Notes under the pieces: model-generated
The model's database searches: none
The model's input: only the letters and a program-made list of their open reading frames with translations
Told to the model about the DNA's origin: nothing
Source: Escherichia coli
Lineage (GTDB): Bacteria > Pseudomonadota > Gammaproteobacteria > Enterobacterales > Enterobacteriaceae
Reading direction: 5' to 3' (one strand)
Assembly: GCF_030013205.1 (NCBI RefSeq)
Contig: NZ_CP122648.1
Length of the DNA: 64,000 nt
Shown here: positions 14,709 through 38,377 of the stretch, in pieces
Numbering within the stretch: the stretch's first letter is position 1
Layout: each line of letters begins with the position of its first letter
Program-made: the position numbers and the translations under genes

Positions 14709-14723
14709 TGGTGTCCCCTGCAG
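14709..14723. repeat. argW-derived att core fragment (matches the 3'-terminal 15 nt of argW)
   Basis: TGGTGTCCCCTGCAG is identical to the first 15 nt of the argW gene as read on the + strand at 40640-40654. Confidence 0.7.
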
Positions 14724-14796
14724 ACATCTACTTGAAGCGGCAGGGGATTGATTGGAATGGTGTTTTTTAGGTGTGAGAAATATTTTACCCGCTATT

Positions 14797-28205: not shown

Positions 28206-28454
28206 ATGCGCACACAGGTTGTATTGCAAAAATGGGGTAACAGCATTGCCCTTCGACTAACGGGAAACCTTAAAACCGTTCCGGGTTTTTCAGTGGGTGA
28301 TATCGTCAACGTTGAAATTAGTGAAAAAGGGCTTTTTGTAGAAAAGCCTGCACGCCGTCGCCTGAGTGAAGCCGAACTACTCGCCGGGATAACGCCAGTT
28401 ACAGCGCACGCTGACGAAATTGCCACCCCATTCAATGAGGAGGTTGATTACTGA
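28206..28454 (+). CDS. MazE/PemI/ChpS-family antitoxin (AbrB/SpoVT fold)
   Basis: 82-aa ORF MRTQVVLQKWGNSIALRLTGNLKTVPGFSVGDIVNVEISEKGLFVEKP... Confidence 0.8.
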   Translation: MRTQVVLQKWGNSIALRLTGNLKTVPGFSVGDIVNVEISEKGLFVEKPARRRLSEAELLAGITPVTAHADEIATPFNEEVDY

Positions 28455-28798
28455 TGTTTGTACCTAAGCGTGGTGATATTTGCTGGCTGGATTTTGAGCC
28501 GCAGAAAGGAAAAGAGATCGGAAAGTATCGCCCGGCACTCATACTATCCCATGAGCAATATAACCGACTCACCGGGCTTGTCATATGCTGCCCCATAAGT
28601 ACGAGCATACGAAATGCTCCCACAGAAGTTCCGGTAACAAATCTGGACGCCCCCAGCGTGGTAGCAACCACACTCATTCAAACCCTTGACTGGCGTCAGC
28701 GGAAAGCGCGCTTAATCACAGAGGCAGAAGATGGGGTATTTAATGATGTGCTTGAAAGAGTCATTACTCTGATTGGTGGAGAGCATCTGCTTAAGTAA
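28454..28798 (+). CDS. MazF/PemK-family endoribonuclease toxin
   Basis: 114-aa ORF MFVPKRGDICWLDFEPQKGKEIGKYRPALILSHEQYNRLTGLVICCPISTS..., start overlapping the antitoxin stop. Confidence 0.8.
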   Translation: MFVPKRGDICWLDFEPQKGKEIGKYRPALILSHEQYNRLTGLVICCPISTSIRNAPTEVPVTNLDAPSVVATTLIQTLDWRQRKARLITEAEDGVFNDVLERVITLIGGEHLLK

Positions 28799-28841: not shown

Positions 28842-30113
28842 CTATTCTTTCCAGTCAATCCCATCCAGTAAGCACCCTGCCTCATATTGCCCCACCACCC
28901 AGTCAAGGTTACAGGACTCATAGAACGCGAGGCGATTATACTGAGGCTCGTTTTTTACCAGGCCACGAACGGAACCACGCTGCCAGTACAGACACAGATT
29001 GGCAAGAGGTGTGATCAATACAGCATTGTCCGGGAAAAATGGAACGGTCACAGCCGGGAGATTCCCCAGAACGGGATTTTTAATGATTTCCTCGTTAAGC
29101 AAAATTTCCTGATTCATCTGCGATGGATCAAGACGGTTTATCAAAGGCCATTGTTTACGGACCAGCGTATTGTGACTGCATACGGCCACAATGCCTTCCT
29201 GCCACTGTTCATCAATCATGGATTGCCAGGCATCCAGAACGAGCGCATCTATCGTATGGTGTGTACCGCGTATATTACTTTTCGGTGATGAGACAGAAAG
29301 GCCGCTGATAACCCTTCCCGCCGCTTCATTTCGAAACTTCTGCAACCAGCCCACGCCGCAATCGTCACGCCCCGGATATGTTCCGGGATCTGATACATCG
29401 GCATAGTGCGTACCGTTAAAACCAATCTGAATCAAATCCAGCCATTTCTGGCGTTCAAAAGCAGCCCGGGCGCTTCCTTCAAGACCGTTTGCGGATGCGT
29501 GAGCATCAACATTGTCGTAGTTCAGCGCAAAATCAAAATTAACCTGCTCGCAGCGGTAGCCCCTTGAAACCAGTGAATGCGCCTGTAGTGGCGAGCGGCG
29601 CTCGTGAGGTGGCGATGTACGTGCTAACGGCCCCGAAGCGTCTACCAGCACAACCTGACCTGATATATCCGTAACAGGCACGGGAGTTATTTCAGCAAGG
29701 AAATTTGCCTGCCATCCACTGGCAAGCGTTGCACTCTGGCGGGGGACGGGTTCAACTTCTGACGAATAGCGCGCAGTGTCACCGGAAAAGTGCAAATCCT
29801 TCGGATGCTTTCCGGTTATCGACTCGATAGCGCAATTGAAAACCATCTGAGACTGTTGATTTCGTTGTGATACAACAGAATCAGCAGTGCAATTATAACG
29901 CTCAATGCCGTCGTTATTACCCCCACCGCTTGCAGTATGCAGGGTGTGAAGCTCAAGCTCACGCTCCAGTTTTTGATATTCATTGTCCAGCGCGCGACGC
30001 GTCTCATCGCTTATGCTTGCTGTGTTTGCTTTCAGGCGATTCCGGGACATTAATCCCCTGAGTCGGCTCACTATATCAGCGCCGTGCAAATGTGGAGTAT
30101 TCAGACCGCCCAT
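28842..30113 (-). CDS. P2 gpN-family major capsid protein homologue with divergent N-terminal region
   Basis: Start taken at internal ATG 30113 (TAATG overlap with the upstream gene stop). C-terminal two-thirds align by eye with P2 gpN (...YRCEQVNFDF..., ...GWLQKFRNEAAGRV..., ...GNLPAVTVPFFPDNAVLITPLANL..., ...YESCNLDWVVGQYEAGCL...). Confidence 0.7.
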   Translation of the reverse strand: MGGLNTPHLHGADIVSRLRGLMSRNRLKANTASISDETRRALDNEYQKLERELELHTLHTASGGGNNDGIERYNCTADSVVSQRNQQSQMVFNCAIESITGKHPKDLHFSGDTARYSSEVEPVPRQSATLASGWQANFLAEITPVPVTDISGQVVLVDASGPLARTSPPHERRSPLQAHSLVSRGYRCEQVNFDFALNYDNVDAHASANGLEGSARAAFERQKWLDLIQIGFNGTHYADVSDPGTYPGRDDCGVGWLQKFRNEAAGRVISGLSVSSPKSNIRGTHHTIDALVLDAWQSMIDEQWQEGIVAVCSHNTLVRKQWPLINRLDPSQMNQEILLNEEIIKNPVLGNLPAVTVPFFPDNAVLITPLANLCLYWQRGSVRGLVKNEPQYNRLAFYESCNLDWVVGQYEAGCLLDGIDWKE

Positions 30114-30823
30114 TACTGCCACCCCCGGCAGAGTTCTCTGCCCTCCGCAAGGTCGCGCATTTTTTCTGGATTCTGTCGCGCCGCGCTCCATTGTACAGGT
30201 GAAGGGGCGCTCCTGATTGCGCAGCTTACTGAATCCGGGAGTTTCTCCGGGCAATAACGCAGCGGGCTGGAGGTGTCGCTTTCGGTATCGTTAATCCGGC
30301 CGCGAATCATCCCGACACTTTCAGCAGTATCTGCCGCTTTCAGTGTTTCGCATATTTTCTTTTCTGCGTTATACAGCGGCTGGCCAAGTAGCTCACATAA
30401 ACCACGAATCAATAACAGAACAGGGGTCAGCTCGTTAATCAGTTCGGGAAGTGCTTTTGCAAATATCTCTGCCCGCAACTTATTATCAATGCTTTCGTAA
30501 GCACAACCAGCCTCTGCCGCGTTATAACGACACTCCAGTAGCCTGATGCGCGCTTCATCATGCAATACCCGCAGACGCTCAAGATTTTCTCGCGCCACAC
30601 CCGCCTGAATGGATAATTTCGCGGAGGCTTCCGTTTTTACGCCCAGCGCAGACAGGATTGAGTTCTGCCAGTCACGATCGAGAGATTCCAGCTCCCCTTT
30701 CGTCTGTTCGATAGTCGCTTCCAGATTGGTGATTAATGATTCCTGTTCACTGAGTTTTGCCATGGCTGTATCAAACTGTGCTTTACATACCTGATGTTCG
30801 GCGCTTGCCTGAGTTATATCCAT
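30113..30823 (-). CDS. Coiled-coil protein coupled to the capsid homologue (candidate scaffold, Sid or Psu-like morphogenetic factor)
   Basis: 236-aa helical ORF immediately upstream of and overlapping the capsid gene start; assignment is positional. Confidence 0.4.
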   Translation of the reverse strand: MDITQASAEHQVCKAQFDTAMAKLSEQESLITNLEATIEQTKGELESLDRDWQNSILSALGVKTEASAKLSIQAGVARENLERLRVLHDEARIRLLECRYNAAEAGCAYESIDNKLRAEIFAKALPELINELTPVLLLIRGLCELLGQPLYNAEKKICETLKAADTAESVGMIRGRINDTESDTSSPLRYCPEKLPDSVSCAIRSAPSPVQWSAARQNPEKMRDLAEGRELCRGWQ

Positions 30824-30873
30824 TATTTGCTCCTGTAATACATTTTTTTACTTACGCCGATTTTTTCCATATT

Positions 30874-30934
30874 GCGTAATACATTCCAGCCGATTTTGTT
30901 CTCGTAATACGCTCACAATACTGTTGTATTACGC
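30874..30934. promoter_or_regulatory. Three palindromic operator-like sites GCGTA(A/T)TACGC in the divergent promoter region
   Basis: Sites at 30874-30882, 30903-30912 and 30926-30934 between the coiled-coil gene start (30823) and the RHH gene start (30989); further copies at 31014-31024, 31545-31555 and 31906-31913. Confidence 0.55.
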
Positions 30935-30988
30935 TTTCTTATATCGCGGGTGTTAAATCCCGGCATAAACAATCAGGGAGGCAACACG

Positions 30989-31222
30989 ATGAAAAAACAA
31001 AAGAAAATGCGATGCGTATTACGCTGTATTCGTATCCCGCACGAAATCGACCATAAAATAAATCAGATATGTGAGGACAGAGAGATGAACTACTCCCAGT
31101 GCGTCAGAATGTTTATCAGTCAGGGAATTAAGGCCGGGGAAAAGCAGGAAGAAGACCACAACGGGCGCAATGTAGCGGGGGATGTGTGGGCCTGGGCAAA
31201 TGACCAGAACCACACGACGTAA
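30989..31222 (+). CDS. Small ribbon-helix-helix-like putative transcriptional regulator
   Basis: 77-aa product MKKQKKMRCVLRCIRIPHEIDHKINQICEDREMNYSQCVRMFISQGIKAG...; GGGAGG RBS 8 nt upstream; divergent from the capsid operon. Confidence 0.45.
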   Translation: MKKQKKMRCVLRCIRIPHEIDHKINQICEDREMNYSQCVRMFISQGIKAGEKQEEDHNGRNVAGDVWAWANDQNHTT

Positions 31223-31272
31223 TACAGAAATAACGCAGCCGGTCACACTCGCTGGCTGTGTTATACAAATCA

Positions 31273-31455
31273 CTATGAAGTTTTCGACTTCCTGCGCTTA
31301 GTAATGCGTACAAACGACTCAAGCGTACAAAAACAAGCCCCACACTCAATATTGTTGCACTGGTAATACGTTCTGTAGATGTTTTGTTCGTGTTCTTCCA
31401 ACGAACGACCACGGGTGCGAGCTGAAGCGCCACAGGCCGGGCAAGGGAAAGACAT
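31273..31455 (-). CDS. Ogr/Delta-family zinc-finger late-gene transcriptional activator
   Basis: 60-aa ORF MSFPCPACGASARTRGRSLEEHEQNIYRTYYQCNNIECGACFCTLESF... with the CPxC...RT.R...YxQCxNxxCxxxFxTxES pattern of P2 Ogr. Confidence 0.8.
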   Translation of the reverse strand: MSFPCPACGASARTRGRSLEEHEQNIYRTYYQCNNIECGACFCTLESFVRITKRRKSKTS

Positions 31456-31817
31456 ATCGCGCTCCTCTTACTGGCGTGAAATTTAACCTATTATATCTTC
31501 CGTTGCCTCCTCTGGCTGTATCAAATAAATCCGCGATGGTCGCTGCGTATTACGCGCAGACACACCGTTCCCATGCTCACTCCTCACATTCCCCGTATCA
31601 ATTCTCTCTTGCCGTAAGAACGGCTCTGGCTGGCGATAAAACTAACCCGGTCAGGCATTCCCGCAGTCTTTAGCGAAAGATGTAATTTACCCCCTGAAAC
31701 GCGGGCTGTTCCCCCGTCACCTGCGCGCGAAAAACTCACCGTTTTTTGTGCACGCACGAAATCGCCCTCCGGGCGCGCCAGTACCGGGCCGGATGGGCAA
31801 AAAGTTACTCTAAAAAA

Positions 31818-31845
31818 TTGTGCAAATTTGTGCACTTTTGTGCAG
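31818..31845. promoter_or_regulatory. Three direct TTGTGCA repeats with 10-bp phasing (operator-like)
   Basis: TTGTGCAAATTTGTGCACTTTTGTGCAG; a fourth TTGTGCAC at 31746-31753. Confidence 0.45.
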
Positions 31846-32059
31846 ATGAACAACAGCGTCAAAAAGAGTGCTTTTGAGAGATTTTTTATGGCAACTGCGC
31901 CGCGTGTATTACGTTTTTACCATCCCCGCCGCGCATGTACATACTTCATTTTTCTGCCAAACAACAGGGCAACTCCCCGTGACTGACAGCCCCAAAAAAT
32001 CAATGATTAATGTTGCGTCTTTGTTAGAGGTCAGATCAGTTGTTTTGGGACTCTGCCTC

Positions 32060-32383
32060 AAAATCCGGTAGGGGGTGCGGAAACGGGTTACAAAGGTTAC
32101 ACCCCCCTAAAACACACTATAATCATATGATTTTAAAACATATTTCTTGTAACCTTTTTGAGGTTACAGAAGGTTACACGAGGTTACAGCTCTCAAAAAC
32201 AGATTAATTATCAATTAATTATAAATTTAACCTGTAACCAACAGTAACCACTACATAAAGGTTACATGTAACCCTGTTGTAACCCGTTTGTAACCTTTTA
32301 AATTTATTATAATATATTGATATATAATACGTTTTTCTGTTTGTAACCTTTGTAACCCGTTTCCGCACCCCCCCCCGGATTTT
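32060..32383. repeat. Block of about 14 GGTTACA/TGTAACC repeats flanked by near-perfect inverted repeats of about 40 bp (candidate attP-like or origin region)
   Basis: Left arm AAAATCCGGTAGGGGGTGCGGAAACGGGTTACAAAGGTTACA (32060-32101) is the reverse complement of the right arm (about 32339-32383); AT-rich core with both-orientation GTAACC repeats. Confidence 0.6.
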
Positions 32384-32628
32384 AGCGCGACCCTTTAAAA
32401 TGTTAATTAAACTCACTAACTCTGTATCACTCTCATTAACTCTCTATGATTGAAATGTATCTCACTGCTGTTTAACTCTTTCTGATAATCAAGAAAGGAG
32501 AGCAAAAAACTGATGGCGCTACCGCTGCAATATGGCCACCATCGCATTGCTGTTACCGTTGGCTTTGGCCAACAAAAAAGGCCAGTGGAAAACTGACCTC
32601 TTTTGCTGTGAATGTAGTGTTCTGCGGG

Positions 32629-33630
32629 TTACTCTACTGGCTCTTTTTGTTCAGTGAATGCCATGTTAGCTATCGGGTTAAACCTCATGGCATCCGCCAG
32701 ATAGTCGGGGGAAAAATGCGCATAAGTCATCGTTTGCTGGATAGTCGCATGTCCAAGAATCCGTTGTAATGTAACGATATTCCCACCGTTAATCATAAAG
32801 TGTGTGGCAAATGTATGACGCATGACATGCGTAGCCTGCCCCTTCGGTAAATCCGGCTTCACCTCCTGAAGGATCTCCCGGAACTTCAGATAATCAACCT
32901 GATACAACAACCCCGTCCGGCGGGTCTTAATCAGCGGCACGACCGAATCAGCCACAGGAACCGAACGGGATTTTCCGTTTTTGGTGTTAAAGAACGTCAC
33001 CCGGTTGCCAATGATGTGCTCTCCACGTAGTTCCGATGCTTCACTCCATCGGGCACCAGTAGAAAGACACAGAATGGCAACACGACGCGCATCACCCTCC
33101 AGTCGCTCAAGAAGCCGCTCAATCTCATCATCAGAAAGAAAGGCCATCTCTGTATTCTGAATTTTTAGCTTGCGTATACCGCGTACAGGGTTCGGGTTGT
33201 GAAAGACCTCAGCTTCAATCAGCACCGTGAACATGGTAGACAGAACGCACAAGTCACGATTAATGCTGGATGGCATTAAGCCGGCCTGTAATTTCTCTGA
33301 CCGATACTCAAGCATAAATTTTTGCGTCATCTGGCTGGCACGCGGATCTCCCATTTCACGAATCACTTTCTCCATCCGGATCCTGTAGGTATCACCGTAA
33401 GCCTGGTTACGGCCATCAAGCATCCACCATATATCAAGCAGCTCTGATAATCTCCGTCGATCAGCAGGTTTAGCCAGCCATGGGTTGTTATGGAAATTCT
33501 GTAAAATATGTTCTTTGAAGGCCTCCGCACTCCCTTTCCTGACAAAAATTTTACGTATCCGTTTGCCGTACGCCCCTTGGGGCCTGATATCGAGCAGCCA
33601 TCGCCCATCATCCATCTTTCTGATCGACAT
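32629..33630 (-). CDS. P2-type tyrosine integrase
   Basis: 333-aa ORF MSIRKMDDGRWLLDIRPQGAYGKRIRKIF...LSELLDIWW...INRDLCVLSTMFTVLIEAE...ILCLSTGARWSEA...GQATHVMRHTFATHFMINGGNIVTLQRILGHATIQQTMTYAHF matches P2 Int in length and motifs. Confidence 0.8.
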   Translation of the reverse strand: MSIRKMDDGRWLLDIRPQGAYGKRIRKIFVRKGSAEAFKEHILQNFHNNPWLAKPADRRRLSELLDIWWMLDGRNQAYGDTYRIRMEKVIREMGDPRASQMTQKFMLEYRSEKLQAGLMPSSINRDLCVLSTMFTVLIEAEVFHNPNPVRGIRKLKIQNTEMAFLSDDEIERLLERLEGDARRVAILCLSTGARWSEASELRGEHIIGNRVTFFNTKNGKSRSVPVADSVVPLIKTRRTGLLYQVDYLKFREILQEVKPDLPKGQATHVMRHTFATHFMINGGNIVTLQRILGHATIQQTMTYAHFSPDYLADAMRFNPIANMAFTEQKEPVE

Positions 33631-33632
33631 AC

Positions 33633-36302
33633 TTAAGCCCCCTCCTTGTTACTAAATATCCAGCATTTCAATACCTCCTTCTCTCTGGCCTCGGCTATTC
33701 CCCTCCCGGCGTTCGCCTGTCTGGATACCTCGCTACGGACGGGCTTGTATCCAATCAGCGATCGAGAACGGCCAGCCTTGAGAAGCTTTATCATTTCGGG
33801 ATTGGTTTGGGTCTTCACGTGGTGAACGGCGGCAACCTGCTCAAGTTGCGGGATACTGACGGCAAACTCATTCTGCCGTCCCTTGCCAAAATGATTTACG
33901 CCGTATGCTGTGATGCCGTCCAGATAGTCGAACGCCTCCCAGAACGCCATCACTTCCGGCAAGTCATCCATTACCGCTTTAGCCTGCTCCTCTGCCATTC
34001 GCTCCAGTTCCAGACATGTGGCATCAAGCCATTCATCCGGGATATCAATAACGCATTTCAGCGCCCTGACCAGTGCAATTAGTTGCGCGTGATTTTTGGC
34101 AATACGCTGATGGCGAATATTCTCGCAACCGTAAAGGCGGGTTGTTTCAGAATCCGAGAGTGCCATAAACAGATCCATAATCGCCCGCTCCTGGCTTACT
34201 GCCCGATGGATAAAACCTGATACCTGCTCAACGGGGTAAAGCTCCAGCCGTTTTGCTGCCAGTCGGCTATCTGGTGAGTGGCGTTTTTTATCGGTGTATA
34301 TACGTACCAGACGCTCGATAATTGCCGATGAGGCGTTTACCGTGGCATTCTGCGCAATCACGACAGCCCCTTTAAAAACGGGGTCATATGTGGCGTTATC
34401 ATTAGTTTTAACACCACGTACCCCAATACCACCGCCGTTATAGAGGCTTTTCAGGTTATCAAAGTCAAACGCACCTCTTTTTTGCGCATTGTCCCCCCGG
34501 TCTGCTTCAATCAGAACAACAGGTAATCCGGCGACCTGTCCAAAAGTTCGCTTCCAGCCTGATTCCGATCCTTTGGTTGGATCAACACCTTCATAGTTGT
34601 CACGGCCACACAAACGCCAACAAAAATCAATCAGCGTTGTTTTACCCGTTCCAGGCTCTCCGGTAATCTCAAGAAAAGGGTAAGACGTGTTTTTCTGCCT
34701 GATTTGTTCGCTGAACAACGAACCCAGCCAGAAGGCCAGGGTAATAATTCCCTTTTCACCAAAAGCCAGCCAGAGATCTTCCACCCAGGATATTGTGAAT
34801 TTATCCGGTTTTTTATAGTTAATCTGCAATATTGGTTTTTTATTCAATGGTTTTGCGTTTATGCCATCAATTTCAAAATAATCCTCTTCATTGATTTCGT
34901 AGGTTTTACCATTACAAACCGCGACATCATTAAACAGCCACGCGCCAATCTCTTTGTTGTATCCGATAAAATCCTGACCGATAACATTTTTTATTGCGGG
35001 AAGGTCATTTTTTATTAATGCATCAAGGTGCGCAGTCGTTCCGGTATAAATACCGCCTTTTGCCACATGCAACAGGCGTTTTTTAAATTCAGATGCGGAT
35101 GTTAATTGTCCTGATGTAAAGGTGTTTTTCACCGTCGCACCATCCGGGAACGTAACACGGAAGTAATACCATGCTTCATCCGTGTCATTGTTTCGAATGT
35201 AATAAAGCGGCGCCGGGTTACAGTTTGCGATTTCTTTTACAGCGCCGGATTCCTTAAGTGCAATTTTGCGCGCTTCATCTTCGTCAACATTTCGCTCATT
35301 TATGACGCGTTCAACAGCCTTCATATGGCGCTCAATATCCAGTTTGAACCAGAAAACACGGTTATCAAAAGTAAAATGAAATTCCTTTCGCTCACGAAAG
35401 GAAAACATTATCAGCGCCTTATCTCTCGGAGATTTTGCCAGCAATAAATCACCGTAATAACGGTATCTTTTCACATCATGGCCACGCAGCTTTCCGGCGA
35501 TGTGTAAATCATTCCAGTCGCGTTTATTGCTGTTTTTTCCTGGTAACGCCGCTGCCGTTCTCCAGCCGTCTTCGGCGCTGCGTTCTGCATGTTTTTTCGC
35601 ATAACGCTCACCCGCACGCCCGTTATCCAGCGCCCACACGATAACCGGACGGGGATTATCCCCGCACAGCTTCGCCAGCTCTTCCAGCGCCTTATCAGGG
35701 TAGTTTACGGCAGACATGACAGAAACGGCCGCAATGCCATTCTGGTTAAGGCTGATGGCATCAAAGATACCCTCACAAATCCAGATTTCTTTGGCCTTGC
35801 TTAAATCATCTCCCGGATAAGCCCACCACAACCCCTTGTAGCTGCCGGAAAAATTCGCCTTGCGCGCGAAGCGTTCCGGTCGGTCTATGATGCGCTCCCA
35901 CCACACGCCGTCAGCCAGTGTAAAACGCACAGTAGCGGCCTGTTCGCCGCTTTCCTTGTCCTGGTATCGCTCCTGAGTAAATGCTCCCTTCAGTGGCTCC
36001 ACAGCAATATTGCGTGCTTCCAGAAGATAAGCTGTCGCCGCTGCGTATGGATTGTCTTTCGTGCTGATATAGCGATCTGACCATGATGAAAACACATCCG
36101 GGTAAAGTTCTTTGGTCAACAGGTCTGTACCGCATTTATTTTCGCGCCCACAGTGCACGATGTACGGCCTTTCAAGGCTGGTAAAGAGCTCCTTCTTTCC
36201 ACATTGCGGACAAACACCATACCGGAGGTAGTTATTTTCTTCTTTGAAGTTGTAATCACGGATAAGACGGTTAATAATCTCTTTTCTGGTGTTATGTTTC
36301 AT
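33633..36302 (-). CDS. Primase-helicase replication protein (Cys4 zinc finger + TOPRIM primase + P4/D5-type NTPase)
   Basis: 889-aa ORF with CPQCGKK...HCGRENKCG, TOPRIM-like WICEGIFDAISL and ALDNGRAGERYA, Walker A GEPGTGKT and Walker B VVLIEAD. Confidence 0.75.
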   Translation of the reverse strand: MKHNTRKEIINRLIRDYNFKEENNYLRYGVCPQCGKKELFTSLERPYIVHCGRENKCGTDLLTKELYPDVFSSWSDRYISTKDNPYAAATAYLLEARNIAVEPLKGAFTQERYQDKESGEQAATVRFTLADGVWWERIIDRPERFARKANFSGSYKGLWWAYPGDDLSKAKEIWICEGIFDAISLNQNGIAAVSVMSAVNYPDKALEELAKLCGDNPRPVIVWALDNGRAGERYAKKHAERSAEDGWRTAAALPGKNSNKRDWNDLHIAGKLRGHDVKRYRYYGDLLLAKSPRDKALIMFSFRERKEFHFTFDNRVFWFKLDIERHMKAVERVINERNVDEDEARKIALKESGAVKEIANCNPAPLYYIRNNDTDEAWYYFRVTFPDGATVKNTFTSGQLTSASEFKKRLLHVAKGGIYTGTTAHLDALIKNDLPAIKNVIGQDFIGYNKEIGAWLFNDVAVCNGKTYEINEEDYFEIDGINAKPLNKKPILQINYKKPDKFTISWVEDLWLAFGEKGIITLAFWLGSLFSEQIRQKNTSYPFLEITGEPGTGKTTLIDFCWRLCGRDNYEGVDPTKGSESGWKRTFGQVAGLPVVLIEADRGDNAQKRGAFDFDNLKSLYNGGGIGVRGVKTNDNATYDPVFKGAVVIAQNATVNASSAIIERLVRIYTDKKRHSPDSRLAAKRLELYPVEQVSGFIHRAVSQERAIMDLFMALSDSETTRLYGCENIRHQRIAKNHAQLIALVRALKCVIDIPDEWLDATCLELERMAEEQAKAVMDDLPEVMAFWEAFDYLDGITAYGVNHFGKGRQNEFAVSIPQLEQVAAVHHVKTQTNPEMIKLLKAGRSRSLIGYKPVRSEVSRQANAGRGIAEAREKEVLKCWIFSNKEGA

Positions 36303-36314
36303 ATATAAATCCCC

Positions 36315-36344
36315 CCCACTGCACCTTTTGCAGTGGGTTTTTTA
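36315..36344. terminator. Hairpin plus T-run between the primase gene start and the upstream small ORF
   Basis: CCCACTGCA-CCTTTT-TGCAGTGGG followed by TTTTTTA; reads as a canonical terminator on the + strand. Confidence 0.4.
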
Positions 36345-36348
36345 TTAA

Positions 36349-36648
36349 TTACTCGTTGCTTATTGCTTTGGCAATCCCGGCGGTTTCGGCGCTATGCCAT
36401 GAAAAAATTCCGCCGGATGAATGCATACCAGATTTTATTGATTGTAATTCCCTATAAATAATGTTAGACAGAGATGCAATTTCTTCATTTATAATTTCTG
36501 CTGATGCTCCGCCATTTTTATCGTCAAAAACCACAGATATTAAACTGACGAGATTAATCACATCTGTGAGATCTTCCTTTGCACTTTCTGTAAAAAAGCC
36601 AACATATTCTCTATCTAAAAAATTTTCGCTATTCTGACGTTTAGACAT
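36349..36648 (-). CDS. Hypothetical protein (AT-rich, island-specific)
   Basis: 99-aa ORF, first of a run of small co-oriented genes upstream of the primase gene; no family recognised. Confidence 0.4.
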   Translation of the reverse strand: MSKRQNSENFLDREYVGFFTESAKEDLTDVINLVSLISVVFDDKNGGASAEIINEEIASLSNIIYRELQSIKSGMHSSGGIFSWHSAETAGIAKAISNE

Positions 36649-36715
36649 AAAAACTCCCCGACCCGTTAAGGCCGAAATATAAATTTAATTCAGTTATCAG
36701 TTGGTAATTCGGGAA

Positions 36716-36934
36716 TCAGGCGGAAAGCTGCGTCACCTTCAACGCCCTGAAATGTGTCATTCCCAGCTCTTCCAGCCCTTCGGCTGCGCGGCGTATGGCT
36801 TCGCCCGGTCCCGTTCCGTATACCGTTGCATGTGCATGTTTGGTTAACCCACGTTTATTAACGGCATAACCCAACACAAAGAAACGTTTTTCACCACTGC
36901 CATTATTTTTACGGGATGTTGAACGGGTTTTCAT
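36716..36934 (-). CDS. Hypothetical small protein
   Basis: 72-aa ORF; start overlaps the stop of the upstream gene (4-nt overlap). Confidence 0.35.
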   Translation of the reverse strand: MKTRSTSRKNNGSGEKRFFVLGYAVNKRGLTKHAHATVYGTGPGEAIRRAAEGLEELGMTHFRALKVTQLSA

Positions 36935-37119
36935 TTCTTCACCTTTACCACTGATGCTGTGAGTTCTTCTTCTGGCAACTGATATTTCGGCGCAATTTCT
37001 TCCGTATACCTGATAGCGTCCCTTGCCGCTTTTCCTTTTGATTTATATTTATATGTGGTCCGGTAGTTTTCTTCCTCTCCTGTTACCACATTACGCAATT
37101 TAATATGAATCTCGTACAT
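36931..37119 (-). CDS. Hypothetical small protein
   Basis: Start taken at MYEIHIKLRNVVTGEEENYRTTYKYKSKGKAARDAIRYTEE...; the track ORF extends 10 codons further upstream. Confidence 0.35.
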   Translation of the reverse strand: MYEIHIKLRNVVTGEEENYRTTYKYKSKGKAARDAIRYTEEIAPKYQLPEEELTASVVKVKK

Positions 37120-37121
37120 CG

Positions 37122-37304
37122 TTACCCCTCCATGATTTTTACTGCGCATTTGTGGGTTAATCGCCCCTGTTCATTCGTGCGGCTGTACTCCATGCGGCTG
37201 GCAGCACGCAGGGCATCATCACAGGTCTGATATTCCCTGACATGAAAAAACTGACGAACGTCGCCGCTCTGGCAGTTAATCAGGGTGATAAGGAGCTTAA
37301 ACAT
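37122..37304 (-). CDS. Hypothetical small protein
   Basis: Start taken at MFKLLITLINCQSGDVRQFFHVREYQTCDDALRAASRMEY...; the longer track ORF overlaps the upstream gene. Confidence 0.3.
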   Translation of the reverse strand: MFKLLITLINCQSGDVRQFFHVREYQTCDDALRAASRMEYSRTNEQGRLTHKCAVKIMEG

Positions 37305-37824
37305 TGCACGCCTCCCGGATACGAATACGGGCAACAGAGACCAGACGGGATGCCGGAAGCAGGGCGCGCGCTTCGCGCTCACTGGCGGCGGTAACGGTAT
37401 GAAGGCGGATATTTTTACCGTGGCACTGCATAAAGCGCCAGATAAAATCAGGGCGTGTTGATATAGCCATTTTGGCGGCTCCTTTGTCTAATTTACGGAG
37501 TCTCGCCAGCACGCTGCTAAACATGGTGGCGGGACGTAACAGGGTTAGCAGACTGGTGACAAAGAAACCAGCAGGCCTTACGGCCTCCCCATTACGCCCC
37601 GCCATAATACGGGAAAGGGTGGTATTACGGGCACAAAAAAACCGCATTACGGAAATATAGCGGCTACCCGCTTTGTCAATCAGGCTGCTAAACCCGGCAC
37701 CCGCTTTATGAGGTGCGGGCAAACGATACGCCATGACAAAAAAGCGAGTCAAGCAATATTGCAAATTATTTTTGCGTGATTGCGCTGAGTAATTGATTTT
37801 TAAGAGTAAAAAAGCCATAATCAT
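37297..37824 (-). CDS. Hypothetical protein (basic, Arg/Ala-rich)
   Basis: 175-aa ORF, first gene downstream of alpA; true start may be the internal MAYRLPAPHKAG... Confidence 0.35.
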   Translation of the reverse strand: MIMAFLLLKINYSAQSRKNNLQYCLTRFFVMAYRLPAPHKAGAGFSSLIDKAGSRYISVMRFFCARNTTLSRIMAGRNGEAVRPAGFFVTSLLTLLRPATMFSSVLARLRKLDKGAAKMAISTRPDFIWRFMQCHGKNIRLHTVTAASEREARALLPASRLVSVARIRIREACNV

Positions 37825-37885
37825 TTCTGCCTATTATTTCTTATTGTTGGTTTCAGGTGCACTAAATGCACATCCTTGACTGGTT

Positions 37886-37917
37886 GGCTCGCTAGCTTTA
37901 GCGAGCTTCTTTTTTGC
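37886..37917 (+). terminator. Plus-strand intrinsic terminator-like hairpin with no annotated plus-strand gene upstream
   Basis: GCTCGCTA-GCTT-TAGCGAGC followed by TTCTTTTTTG; a second hairpin GGTGCACTAAATGCACATCC lies about 20 nt upstream. Confidence 0.4.
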
Positions 37918-38377
37918 TCTGCAGCCAGTACCCGGCCTCCTTCCCTCACATGTAGTCATGTGCTCATTCCAGTCAGGTGGATAATGCTGTATTACCGGAC
38001 ATCCGGTTATGATGTTTAAAGCGTTTGTTTGTTTATGCCACGTGGAGAATATACCCACGCCGCCATTACTTGTATTTATCATAACAGTTCATCCAATTCG
38101 GTTAATGTAACCGGAATAACTCAATTTCATACACTGTAAATAAATGCTGATTTTAAACTTAGCTCCTTGGAATATATTTCTTACGTGTGACGTACAGGTG
38201 AAAATATCCCTCTGATAGTCCATTTTCTTTTATTGGGTCACATCTTTTTACTCCGGTTCCCTTAACAAGGGTAGAGCATCTTTTAAACCATGAATGCATC
38301 TTTGGTTAAGTGATGTTTCTTATTGAATGAAATGTTTAGGCGCATATCGCGCCATGCTGACTATAAAGTGAAAATAA

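Follow-up and report, generated by a model that had tools for sequence, protein, structure and literature searches.

We analyzed a 64,000-nt stretch of Escherichia coli DNA (contig NZ_CP122648.1 of RefSeq assembly GCF_030013205.1), referred to here as the window, and focused on the interval between positions 36349 and 37824. A sequence-only reading had described this interval as a run of five small open reading frames (ORFs) of unknown function between alpA and a primase gene. We find that it is very probably the 5′ half of an early operon belonging to a P4-related satellite at tRNA-Arg(CCU), the equivalent of the P4 "left" operon, and that this operon has an RNA switch. The label of unknown function held for four of the ORFs, here called B, C, D, and E, but not for the first one, which is made up of a known antisense-RNA immunity module and an ORF resembling icd. 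The operon follows a known regulatory logic and varies on the P4 left operon in its cargo, which is different and uncharacterized. Features lie on the minus strand unless stated otherwise, and nucleotide coordinates are those of the window unless another locus is named.

The RNA module is preceded by a sigma-70 promoter-like site (37723 to 37752), with TTGACT at 37752 to 37747 and TATCGT at 37728 to 37723, separated by 18 nt. This site was found by a scan and by alignment to the annotated P1 promoter, P1c4 (former P51b), with which it is collinear. A leader of the IsrK or P4 seqA type follows (37635 to 37716; Rfam isrK, 52.1 bits, gathering score of 50). The leader carries the target sites a1 (TTAGCAG, 37691 to 37685) and b1 (GACAAAG, 37677 to 37671), and at its 3′ end has a hairpin (AGCCGC...GCGGU) and then a run of seven T's (37641 to 37635). 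Next is a C4/CI-type antisense RNA (37522 to 37609), which matched RF01695 over positions 1 to 87 of the 87 in the model (79.7 bits; E value, 9.5e-15; gathering score, 45). The same family was matched in P4 and in the related loci L010, L011, and L013. The equivalent of the mature 77-nt P1 C4 RNA spans approximately 37603 to 37525 and ends in GCCACC.

The C4 RNA has two recognition loops, b′ (CUUUGUC, 37564 to 37558) and a′ (CUGCUAA, 37551 to 37545). Loop b′ is complementary to b1 and to a second site downstream of the RNA, b2 (GACAAAG, 37488 to 37482), and loop a′ is complementary to a1 and to a2 (TTAGCAG, 37520 to 37514). The downstream pair of target sites (37477 to 37521) was identified by loop complementarity, alignment, and covariation. 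At b2 the pairing extends to GACAAAGGAGCC (37488 to 37477) and overlaps AAGGAG (37484 to 37479), the Shine-Dalgarno sequence of the icd-like ORF. The DNA between 37697 and 37512 is 77 to 80% identical to the c4 locus of P1 and P7, and the promoter, a1, b1, c4, a2, b2, and the icd start are all collinear with the annotated immI of these phages.

We examined covariation of the loops and their targets in P1, P7, and a set of close relatives with 11 distinct leaders, using 500 shuffles and slid controls for comparison. The b1, b′, and b2 sequences changed together across this set. Pairing was kept in 98.7% of the cells, and 33 to 34 cells had double-sided changes, values that none of the 500 shuffles reached; the slid controls paired at only 25 to 58%. 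The satellites had six different b-site target sequences (GACAAAG, GTAAGAG, AATCAAG, AATTGG[G], GTAGAAG, and ACCAAAG), the two phages had GTTAGTG (P1) and GATTGTG (P7), and the a sites fell into two matched alleles. Further, sliding identity among the relatives was 65 to 83% exactly at the C4 loops, against a background of 92 to 100%, and the divergence peaks along the block were the C4 loops, the middle of B, and E. Divergence at the loops is the classical heteroimmunity pattern of P1 versus P7. Selection acts on the antisense interaction. Satellites that are near-identical elsewhere have at least six RNA immunity specificities, which provide a clean natural set of triple compensatory changes.

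The first ORF of the interval was called at 37297 to 37824 and is annotated in RefSeq as a 175-aa "host cell division inhibitor Icd-like protein." To judge from the sequence comparisons, it is not one protein gene, and only its last 57 codons are a gene. Residues 1 to 118 overlie the promoter, the IsrK/seqA-like leader, and the C4 RNA, and the predicted promoter sits downstream of the ATG of the long frame. In codons 1 to 118, the ratio of non-synonymous to synonymous changes (pN/pS) was 0.92, compared to 0.16 to 0.50 for the real ORFs, and three relatives had 2 synonymous versus 19 non-synonymous changes there. The homologous stretch in P1 and in the related locus L085 contains in-frame stop codons. 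The Icd-like domain is limited to residues 127 to 168 of the long call. The 57-aa ORF itself (MAISTRPDFIWRF...; 37297 to 37470) is collinear with P1/P7 icd, has AAGGAG 8 nt upstream of its ATG at 37470, and matched phrog_1426 and, over residues 9 to 50, NCBIfam NF033153 (phage_ICD_like; 46.6 bits, cut-off of 25). Its pN/pS was 0.22. P4 offers a parallel, in that the old "cI gene product (137 aa)" ORF overlies the isrK and C4 matches and ends in Icd-like sequence. The 172- to 175-aa "Icd-like protein" in RefSeq and in hundreds of contigs is a recurrent annotation error, which we correct here to an immunity RNA and a 57-aa ORF.

Some protein families also touch this region. PHROGs 29966, 995, and 821 matched residues 31 to 121 of the 175-aa ORF, which correspond to the translated IsrK/C4 region; PHROGs 995 and 821 carry the label "transcriptional regulator." Pfam Phage_ASH matched the equivalent ORF in L011 (positions 345 to 938 of that locus). 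These families may be partly built on translated non-coding RNA.

Downstream of icd, ORFs B, C, and D are chained to it by overlapping or abutting stops and starts; the sequence-only reading was correct in noting overlapping junctions. The icd stop and the B ATG overlap by 8 nt (ATGTTTAA), C starts 2 nt past the B stop, and the C stop and D ATG overlap in ATGA. ORF B (37122 to 37304; 60 aa; pN/pS, 0.41) and ORF C (36931 to 37119; 62 aa; pN/pS, 0.44) are given here in the short forms that homologues support, and ORF D (36716 to 36934; 72 aa; pN/pS, 0.16), whose N-terminal tail is basic, shows the strongest conservation among B to E. An hhalign comparison identified B and C as paralogues in tandem (probability, 94.6%; E value, 7e-8). 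A proposal that D is a third member of this pair was unsupported (hhalign E value, 0.05 to 0.2). Homologues with intact frames were found for C down to 43% identity, all of them starting with MY, and for D at 67% identity in P0126, a sequence from an L013-type locus named Yersinia enterocolitica by its source, and at 45% in the P4-like L011. The middle of B is a divergence hotspot, with 68 to 70% nucleotide identity at 37240 to 37180 against a background of 90 to 100%. By their substitution patterns, B, C, D, and also E (pN/pS, 0.50) are real genes under purifying selection.

None of B, C, D, and E had a significant match in Pfam, PHROGs, NCBIfam, or PADLOC, and the four had no match in the Protein Data Bank (PDB; sequence and profile searches) or by tblastn against 50,697 phage records, including P4. 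The sequence-only reading had recognized none of the five ORFs, and for these four this held in every library tried. For C, AlphaFold2 run on a joint B/C alignment predicted a beta-beta-alpha-beta fold with a predicted local distance difference test score (pLDDT) of 89.7. A Foldseek search with this model recovered the same fold in many uncharacterized small proteins of Enterobacterales and phages and otherwise generic folds, among them topoisomerase domains, PurS, ClpS, and the anti-CRISPR AcrIC8 (PDB 8g9s). Identity to AcrIC8 is 17%, the fold is generic, and the topoisomerase, PurS, and ClpS structures match equally well. The fold matches assign no function to B or C, and we do not take the AcrIC8 match as functional evidence. 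A search with the concatenated B, C, and D proteins returned only frameshift fusions. In some relatives (L005, 2325 to 3032 of that locus; P0001 to P0005), such frameshift or indel fusions are annotated as single proteins, either icd-B (232 to 233 aa) or C-D (134 aa); cistrons coupled this tightly are thus easily fused.

Approximately 20 loci kept the order icd-B-C-D-E-primase; they came from genomes of E. coli, from contigs in IMG/VR, and from a second Escherichia species. The divergent L013-type locus has the same order without B; its layout is int, alpA, a 287-aa ORF, a P2 capsid gene, C4/icd, C, D, E, primase, a second integrase, and ogr/delta. L011, a metagenomic P4-like contig, reads alpA, isrK, C4, icd, B, C, D, epsilon, and primase, and its epsilon carries the Pfam domain "Derepression." In L085, icd is followed by three unrelated ORFs, epsilon, and primase. 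Among 58 epsilon-bearing P4-like loci in IMG/VR, 56 had the order icd-epsilon-orf151-cnr and one differed only in having no cnr; B, C, D, and E were found in none of the 58. These layouts show that the early operon has a variable slot between icd and the primase, and that B-C-D is a cassette common to some lineages. A scan of genome contigs with the primase returned a single locus only, and a scan of viral contigs with the C family returned only close relatives. What was five unknown ORFs is now narrowed to four small genes (B/C, D, and E as families) that are core to an uncommon satellite lineage and all under the immunity switch.

ORF E (36349 to 36648; 99 aa) lies immediately upstream of the primase. 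The sequence-only reading had singled it out as AT-rich, and its GC content is indeed approximately 0.37, compared to 0.43 to 0.54 in its neighbors. It is also the most variable gene of the block, with homologues with intact frames down to 33% identity, and it occupies the slot held by epsilon in L011 and L085. The protein has a conserved N-terminal motif (EYxGFFTE), a hypervariable center, and a nearly invariant C-terminal motif (SGMHxSGGIFSWH). Two hairpins bracket the gene. The upstream one (36656 to 36677, followed by AGUUUUUAUG) lies in the 67-nt spacer between D and E and is 93 to 97% conserved in the E. coli relatives. The E Shine-Dalgarno sequence, GGGGAG, falls within the 3′ arm of this hairpin, which may be an attenuator or a mask of the E ribosome site. 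The downstream one (36315 to 36337), between the E stop and the primase ATG, is an inverted repeat that resembles an intrinsic terminator when read on the plus strand, in the direction opposite to the operon. A second strong plus-strand terminator-like hairpin with a T run lies just upstream of the C4 promoter (37886 to 37907), and there is no apparent plus-strand gene for these two hairpins to terminate.

The analysis established the anatomy of the interval, its synteny, the loop covariation, which ORFs are coding, and that both the RNA module and icd have known homologues; from these, a model of the operon can be assembled. Transcription would start at the sigma-70 promoter inside the supposed 175-aa ORF and proceed through the seqA/IsrK-like leader with a1 and b1, the C4/CI-type RNA, a2 and b2, icd, B-C-D, E, and the primase. 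The C4 RNA would be cut out of the leader, and its loops would pair with a2/b2 and a1/b1 on new transcripts and so hide the icd ribosome site. Without icd translation, transcription would terminate prematurely, and B to E and the primase would be silent in the lysogen. The sequence of the b loop would set the immunity specificity, or group. Since B to E lie under this switch, they would be early proteins, made only when immunity is overcome, and the primase is the presumed ultimate target of the immunity RNA. We infer the RNA processing, the repression, and the operon polarity from the biology of P1/P7 and P4. The mechanism of the P4 CI RNA, seqA and seqC, and the relation of IsrK to seqA have been described (PMC4825925). 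The regulatory position that the sequence-only reading had proposed for these ORFs holds, as the interval is the counterpart of the P4 left operon, where immunity, kil/eta, the helper-derepression gene epsilon, orf151, and cnr precede the primase.

Several observations weigh against parts of this model and of our reading of E. The match of the leader to the Rfam family c4-a1b1 scored 29 bits, under the gathering score of 46.7. The downstream partner of icd in P1, the antirepressor gene ant, is absent: the element has no annotated ant homologue, and icd is coupled to B, a 60-aa ORF with no family match, rather than to an ant-type antirepressor gene as in P1 immI. RNA processing, icd repression, and the polar effect on B to E and the primase are all carried over by homology. 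A terminator-like hairpin stands ahead of E, which may not be simply co-expressed with B to D, and the structure model of E is helical but poor (pLDDT of 55), too poor for a fold search. Moreover, the frame of 172 to 175 aa stays open in all close relatives. This last point, together with the annotation of that frame by PGAP and the three PHROG matches to residues 31 to 121, favors an alternative in which RefSeq is correct, each of the five ORFs is a protein gene, the 175-aa one over its full length, and the RNA-family matches are incidental. We consider this highly improbable, given the pN/pS of 0.92 and the 2:19 ratio of synonymous to non-synonymous changes in codons 1 to 118, the triple compensatory changes at the RNA level, a full-length Rfam C4 match far above the gathering score, a predicted promoter downstream of the ATG, and a 57-aa product with its own strong Shine-Dalgarno sequence. 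Translation of the RNA sequence is the best explanation for the PHROG matches. Because the homologous leaders of P1 and L085 have in-frame stops, we attribute the open long frame to a conserved GC-rich RNA and not to coding.

The sequence-only reading had listed anti-defense among the roles of genes at this position, and B to E, or at least E, could be accessory cargo (defense or anti-defense morons) with no part in satellite regulation or replication. E is AT-rich, flanked by hairpins, and 33 to 100% identical at the amino acid level in an otherwise 92 to 100% background, the middle of B is also a divergence hotspot, and L085 has unrelated ORFs in the same slot. However, PADLOC returned 0 matches and we found no evidence of a defense or anti-defense role; B to D are translationally chained to icd; and the fold of C, which also matches topoisomerase domains, PurS, and ClpS, is generic. 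Synteny of C, D, and E extends from E. coli to the L013-type locus, and a true P4-like element also has B-C-D, so these would be core genes rather than cargo, and we regard the cargo explanation as unlikely. Still less likely is that E is a highly diverged orthologue of P4 epsilon with shared ancestry and function. The two have the same position and similar sizes (85 to 101 aa), E is predicted to be helical, and they share a short motif (RELxxxxSGMHxSGGIFSW in E versus RELSGLHQLYIPHIFSY in epsilon), a resemblance that we treat as a lead only. Against orthology, hhalign gave a probability of 0.3% (E value, 0.18), Pfam PF25738 ("Derepression") matched 0 of 12 E variants, and the E variants had no PHROG match, so no PHROG is common to E and epsilon, which matches phrog_10016 and phrog_3688. 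The canonical P4 epsilon also comes directly after icd, unlike E. On the hhalign and Pfam results, we rejected E as an epsilon homologue.

Our best guess, and a tentative one, is that E has a variable interaction partner in the helper or the host, for instance as an anti-repressor. A more specific and somewhat more speculative proposal is that E represents a new helper-manipulating family (an anti-repressor or helper sensor) that has replaced epsilon, with a center that tracks helper repressor types, and that B/C and D are new early effectors freed when RNA immunity is overcome. This proposal is set in a P4-related lineage that has a capsid gene and no annotated sid or psu. E is a concrete candidate for how epsilon-less satellites talk to their helper.

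The element as a whole is integrated at a tRNA-Arg(CCU) gene (40714 to 40640), which is followed by a P4-type integrase gene (40503 to 39199). The alpA/vis-like regulator (38378 to 38599) is upstream of the operon, and the toprim primase (33633 to 36302; 889 aa; phrog_1139; E value, 4e-302) is the downstream gene in the same operon. The five ORFs between them are all on one strand and in one orientation, as first described, and RefSeq annotates the same five in an identical segment of E. coli K_EC180, as an "Icd-like protein" and four hypothetical proteins. This segment was 100% identical in K_EC180 and in several porcine enterotoxigenic E. coli genomes, and a search of 5,426 complete E. coli genomes matched the element in 72. 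P4-like satellites have been defined by seven components, int, psu, delta, sid, alpA, epsilon, as well as alpha (PMC8628076). The integrase, alpA, delta/ogr (phrog_603, Ogr-like), and an alpha-type primase (phrog_1139) are all present, and Pfam Phage_AlpA and Ogr_Delta matched the orthologues in L013. A tblastn search with P4 epsilon had no match in the 26-kb K_EC180 locus (L001) or in any relative of this type, and no RefSeq product in the element is named psu or sid, though no search aimed at Psu or Sid profiles was made. With no epsilon, no annotated psu or sid, and a P2-family major capsid gene of its own, the element falls outside the seven-component definition.

The capsid gene (in 28842 to 31455) encodes a 423-aa protein that matched phrog_70 and has an N-terminal extension of approximately 118 aa. 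Directly upstream of it is a 236-aa ORF with no PHROG or other family match, and an Ogr/Delta zinc-finger gene is nearby. A gpN-like capsid gene in P4-related satellites was not described in any paper that we found. The L013-type relative has its capsid module between alpA and the C4 RNA (3371 to 5297 of L013). The corresponding spacer in the window, between alpA and the C4 promoter (37753 to 38377), is approximately 620 nt long, unannotated, and AT-rich (GC content, 0.35 to 0.45), contains an 82-aa ORF (38082 to 37834), and acts as a variable insertion point, being the site of the capsid module in L013 and differing also in L008. Iterons or an origin were sought in this spacer, and nothing convincing was found.

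On the other side of the operon, a second tyrosine recombinase (32629 to 33630; 333 aa; phrog_1) begins 3 nt past the primase stop. The L013-type relative has a conserved copy (Pfam Int_N and Phage_integrase), whereas the gene is truncated in K_EC180, which is without approximately 1.66 kb downstream of the primase (L001 8632 to 9331 versus window 31273 to 33630). The missing stretch also includes the spacer before ogr. Although K_EC180 is identical to the window across the interval under study, the window therefore comes from a different strain. A MazE/MazF (AbrB/PemK) toxin-antitoxin pair (28206 to 28798, plus strand) marks the distal end of the satellite and adjoins the intS of a neighboring CPS-53-like remnant. 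A 15-nt exact repeat of the tRNA-Arg 3′ end, CTGCAGGGGACACCA, occurs at 14709 to 14726 and 40640 to 40657, 26 kb apart, which suggests a composite island of the satellite and the CPS-53-like remnant. No internal attachment site copy was found between the satellite and the neighboring intS remnant at the stringency used.

Three known systems can be compared with this operon. In the Salmonella prophage Gifsy-1, the segment isrK-orf45-anrP has an IsrK-type leader and then a processed small RNA, as well as a short ORF coupled to the next gene (by AUGA in Gifsy-1), an arrangement that the satellite operon would share (PMC4825925). The IsrK RNA of Gifsy-1 acts in trans to activate orf45 and anrP translation, and an antirepressor is encoded downstream (PMC4825925); here, in contrast, there is no sign of activation and no AnrP homologue. 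The immI operon of P1 and P7 consists of the c4 antisense RNA, icd, and ant1/ant2. The operon described here differs from it in its b-loop specificity (CUUUGUC), in the size of icd (57 versus 73 aa), in having no C1 operator context and no ant gene, and in its downstream genes, which are B to E and a satellite primase. It resembles immI in leader and c4 DNA that is 77 to 80% identical, in having the promoter, a1, b1, a2, and b2 at the same positions with b2 at the icd ribosome site, and in the translational coupling of icd to the next gene; its a-site allele is that of P7.

The left operon of P4 is ordered PLE, seqA, cI (the CI RNA), seqC, kil/eta, epsilon, orf151, cnr (orf106), and alpha. The satellite operon differs from it in having no epsilon, orf151, or cnr and in the identity of its small genes; its element has a P2-family capsid gene and no annotated psu or sid, and the DNA of its RNA module is closer to P1/P7 than to P4. 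What it shares with P4 is the order of an alpA/vis-like gene, an IsrK/seqA-like leader, a C4-family RNA, an Icd-like ORF, small ORFs, and a primase, and the P4 sequence itself has isrK, C4, and Icd-like sequence in this order ahead of epsilon and alpha. The complementarity between loops and targets is present in P4 too, as is, from its own annotation history, an over-long "cI protein" ORF laid over the RNA.

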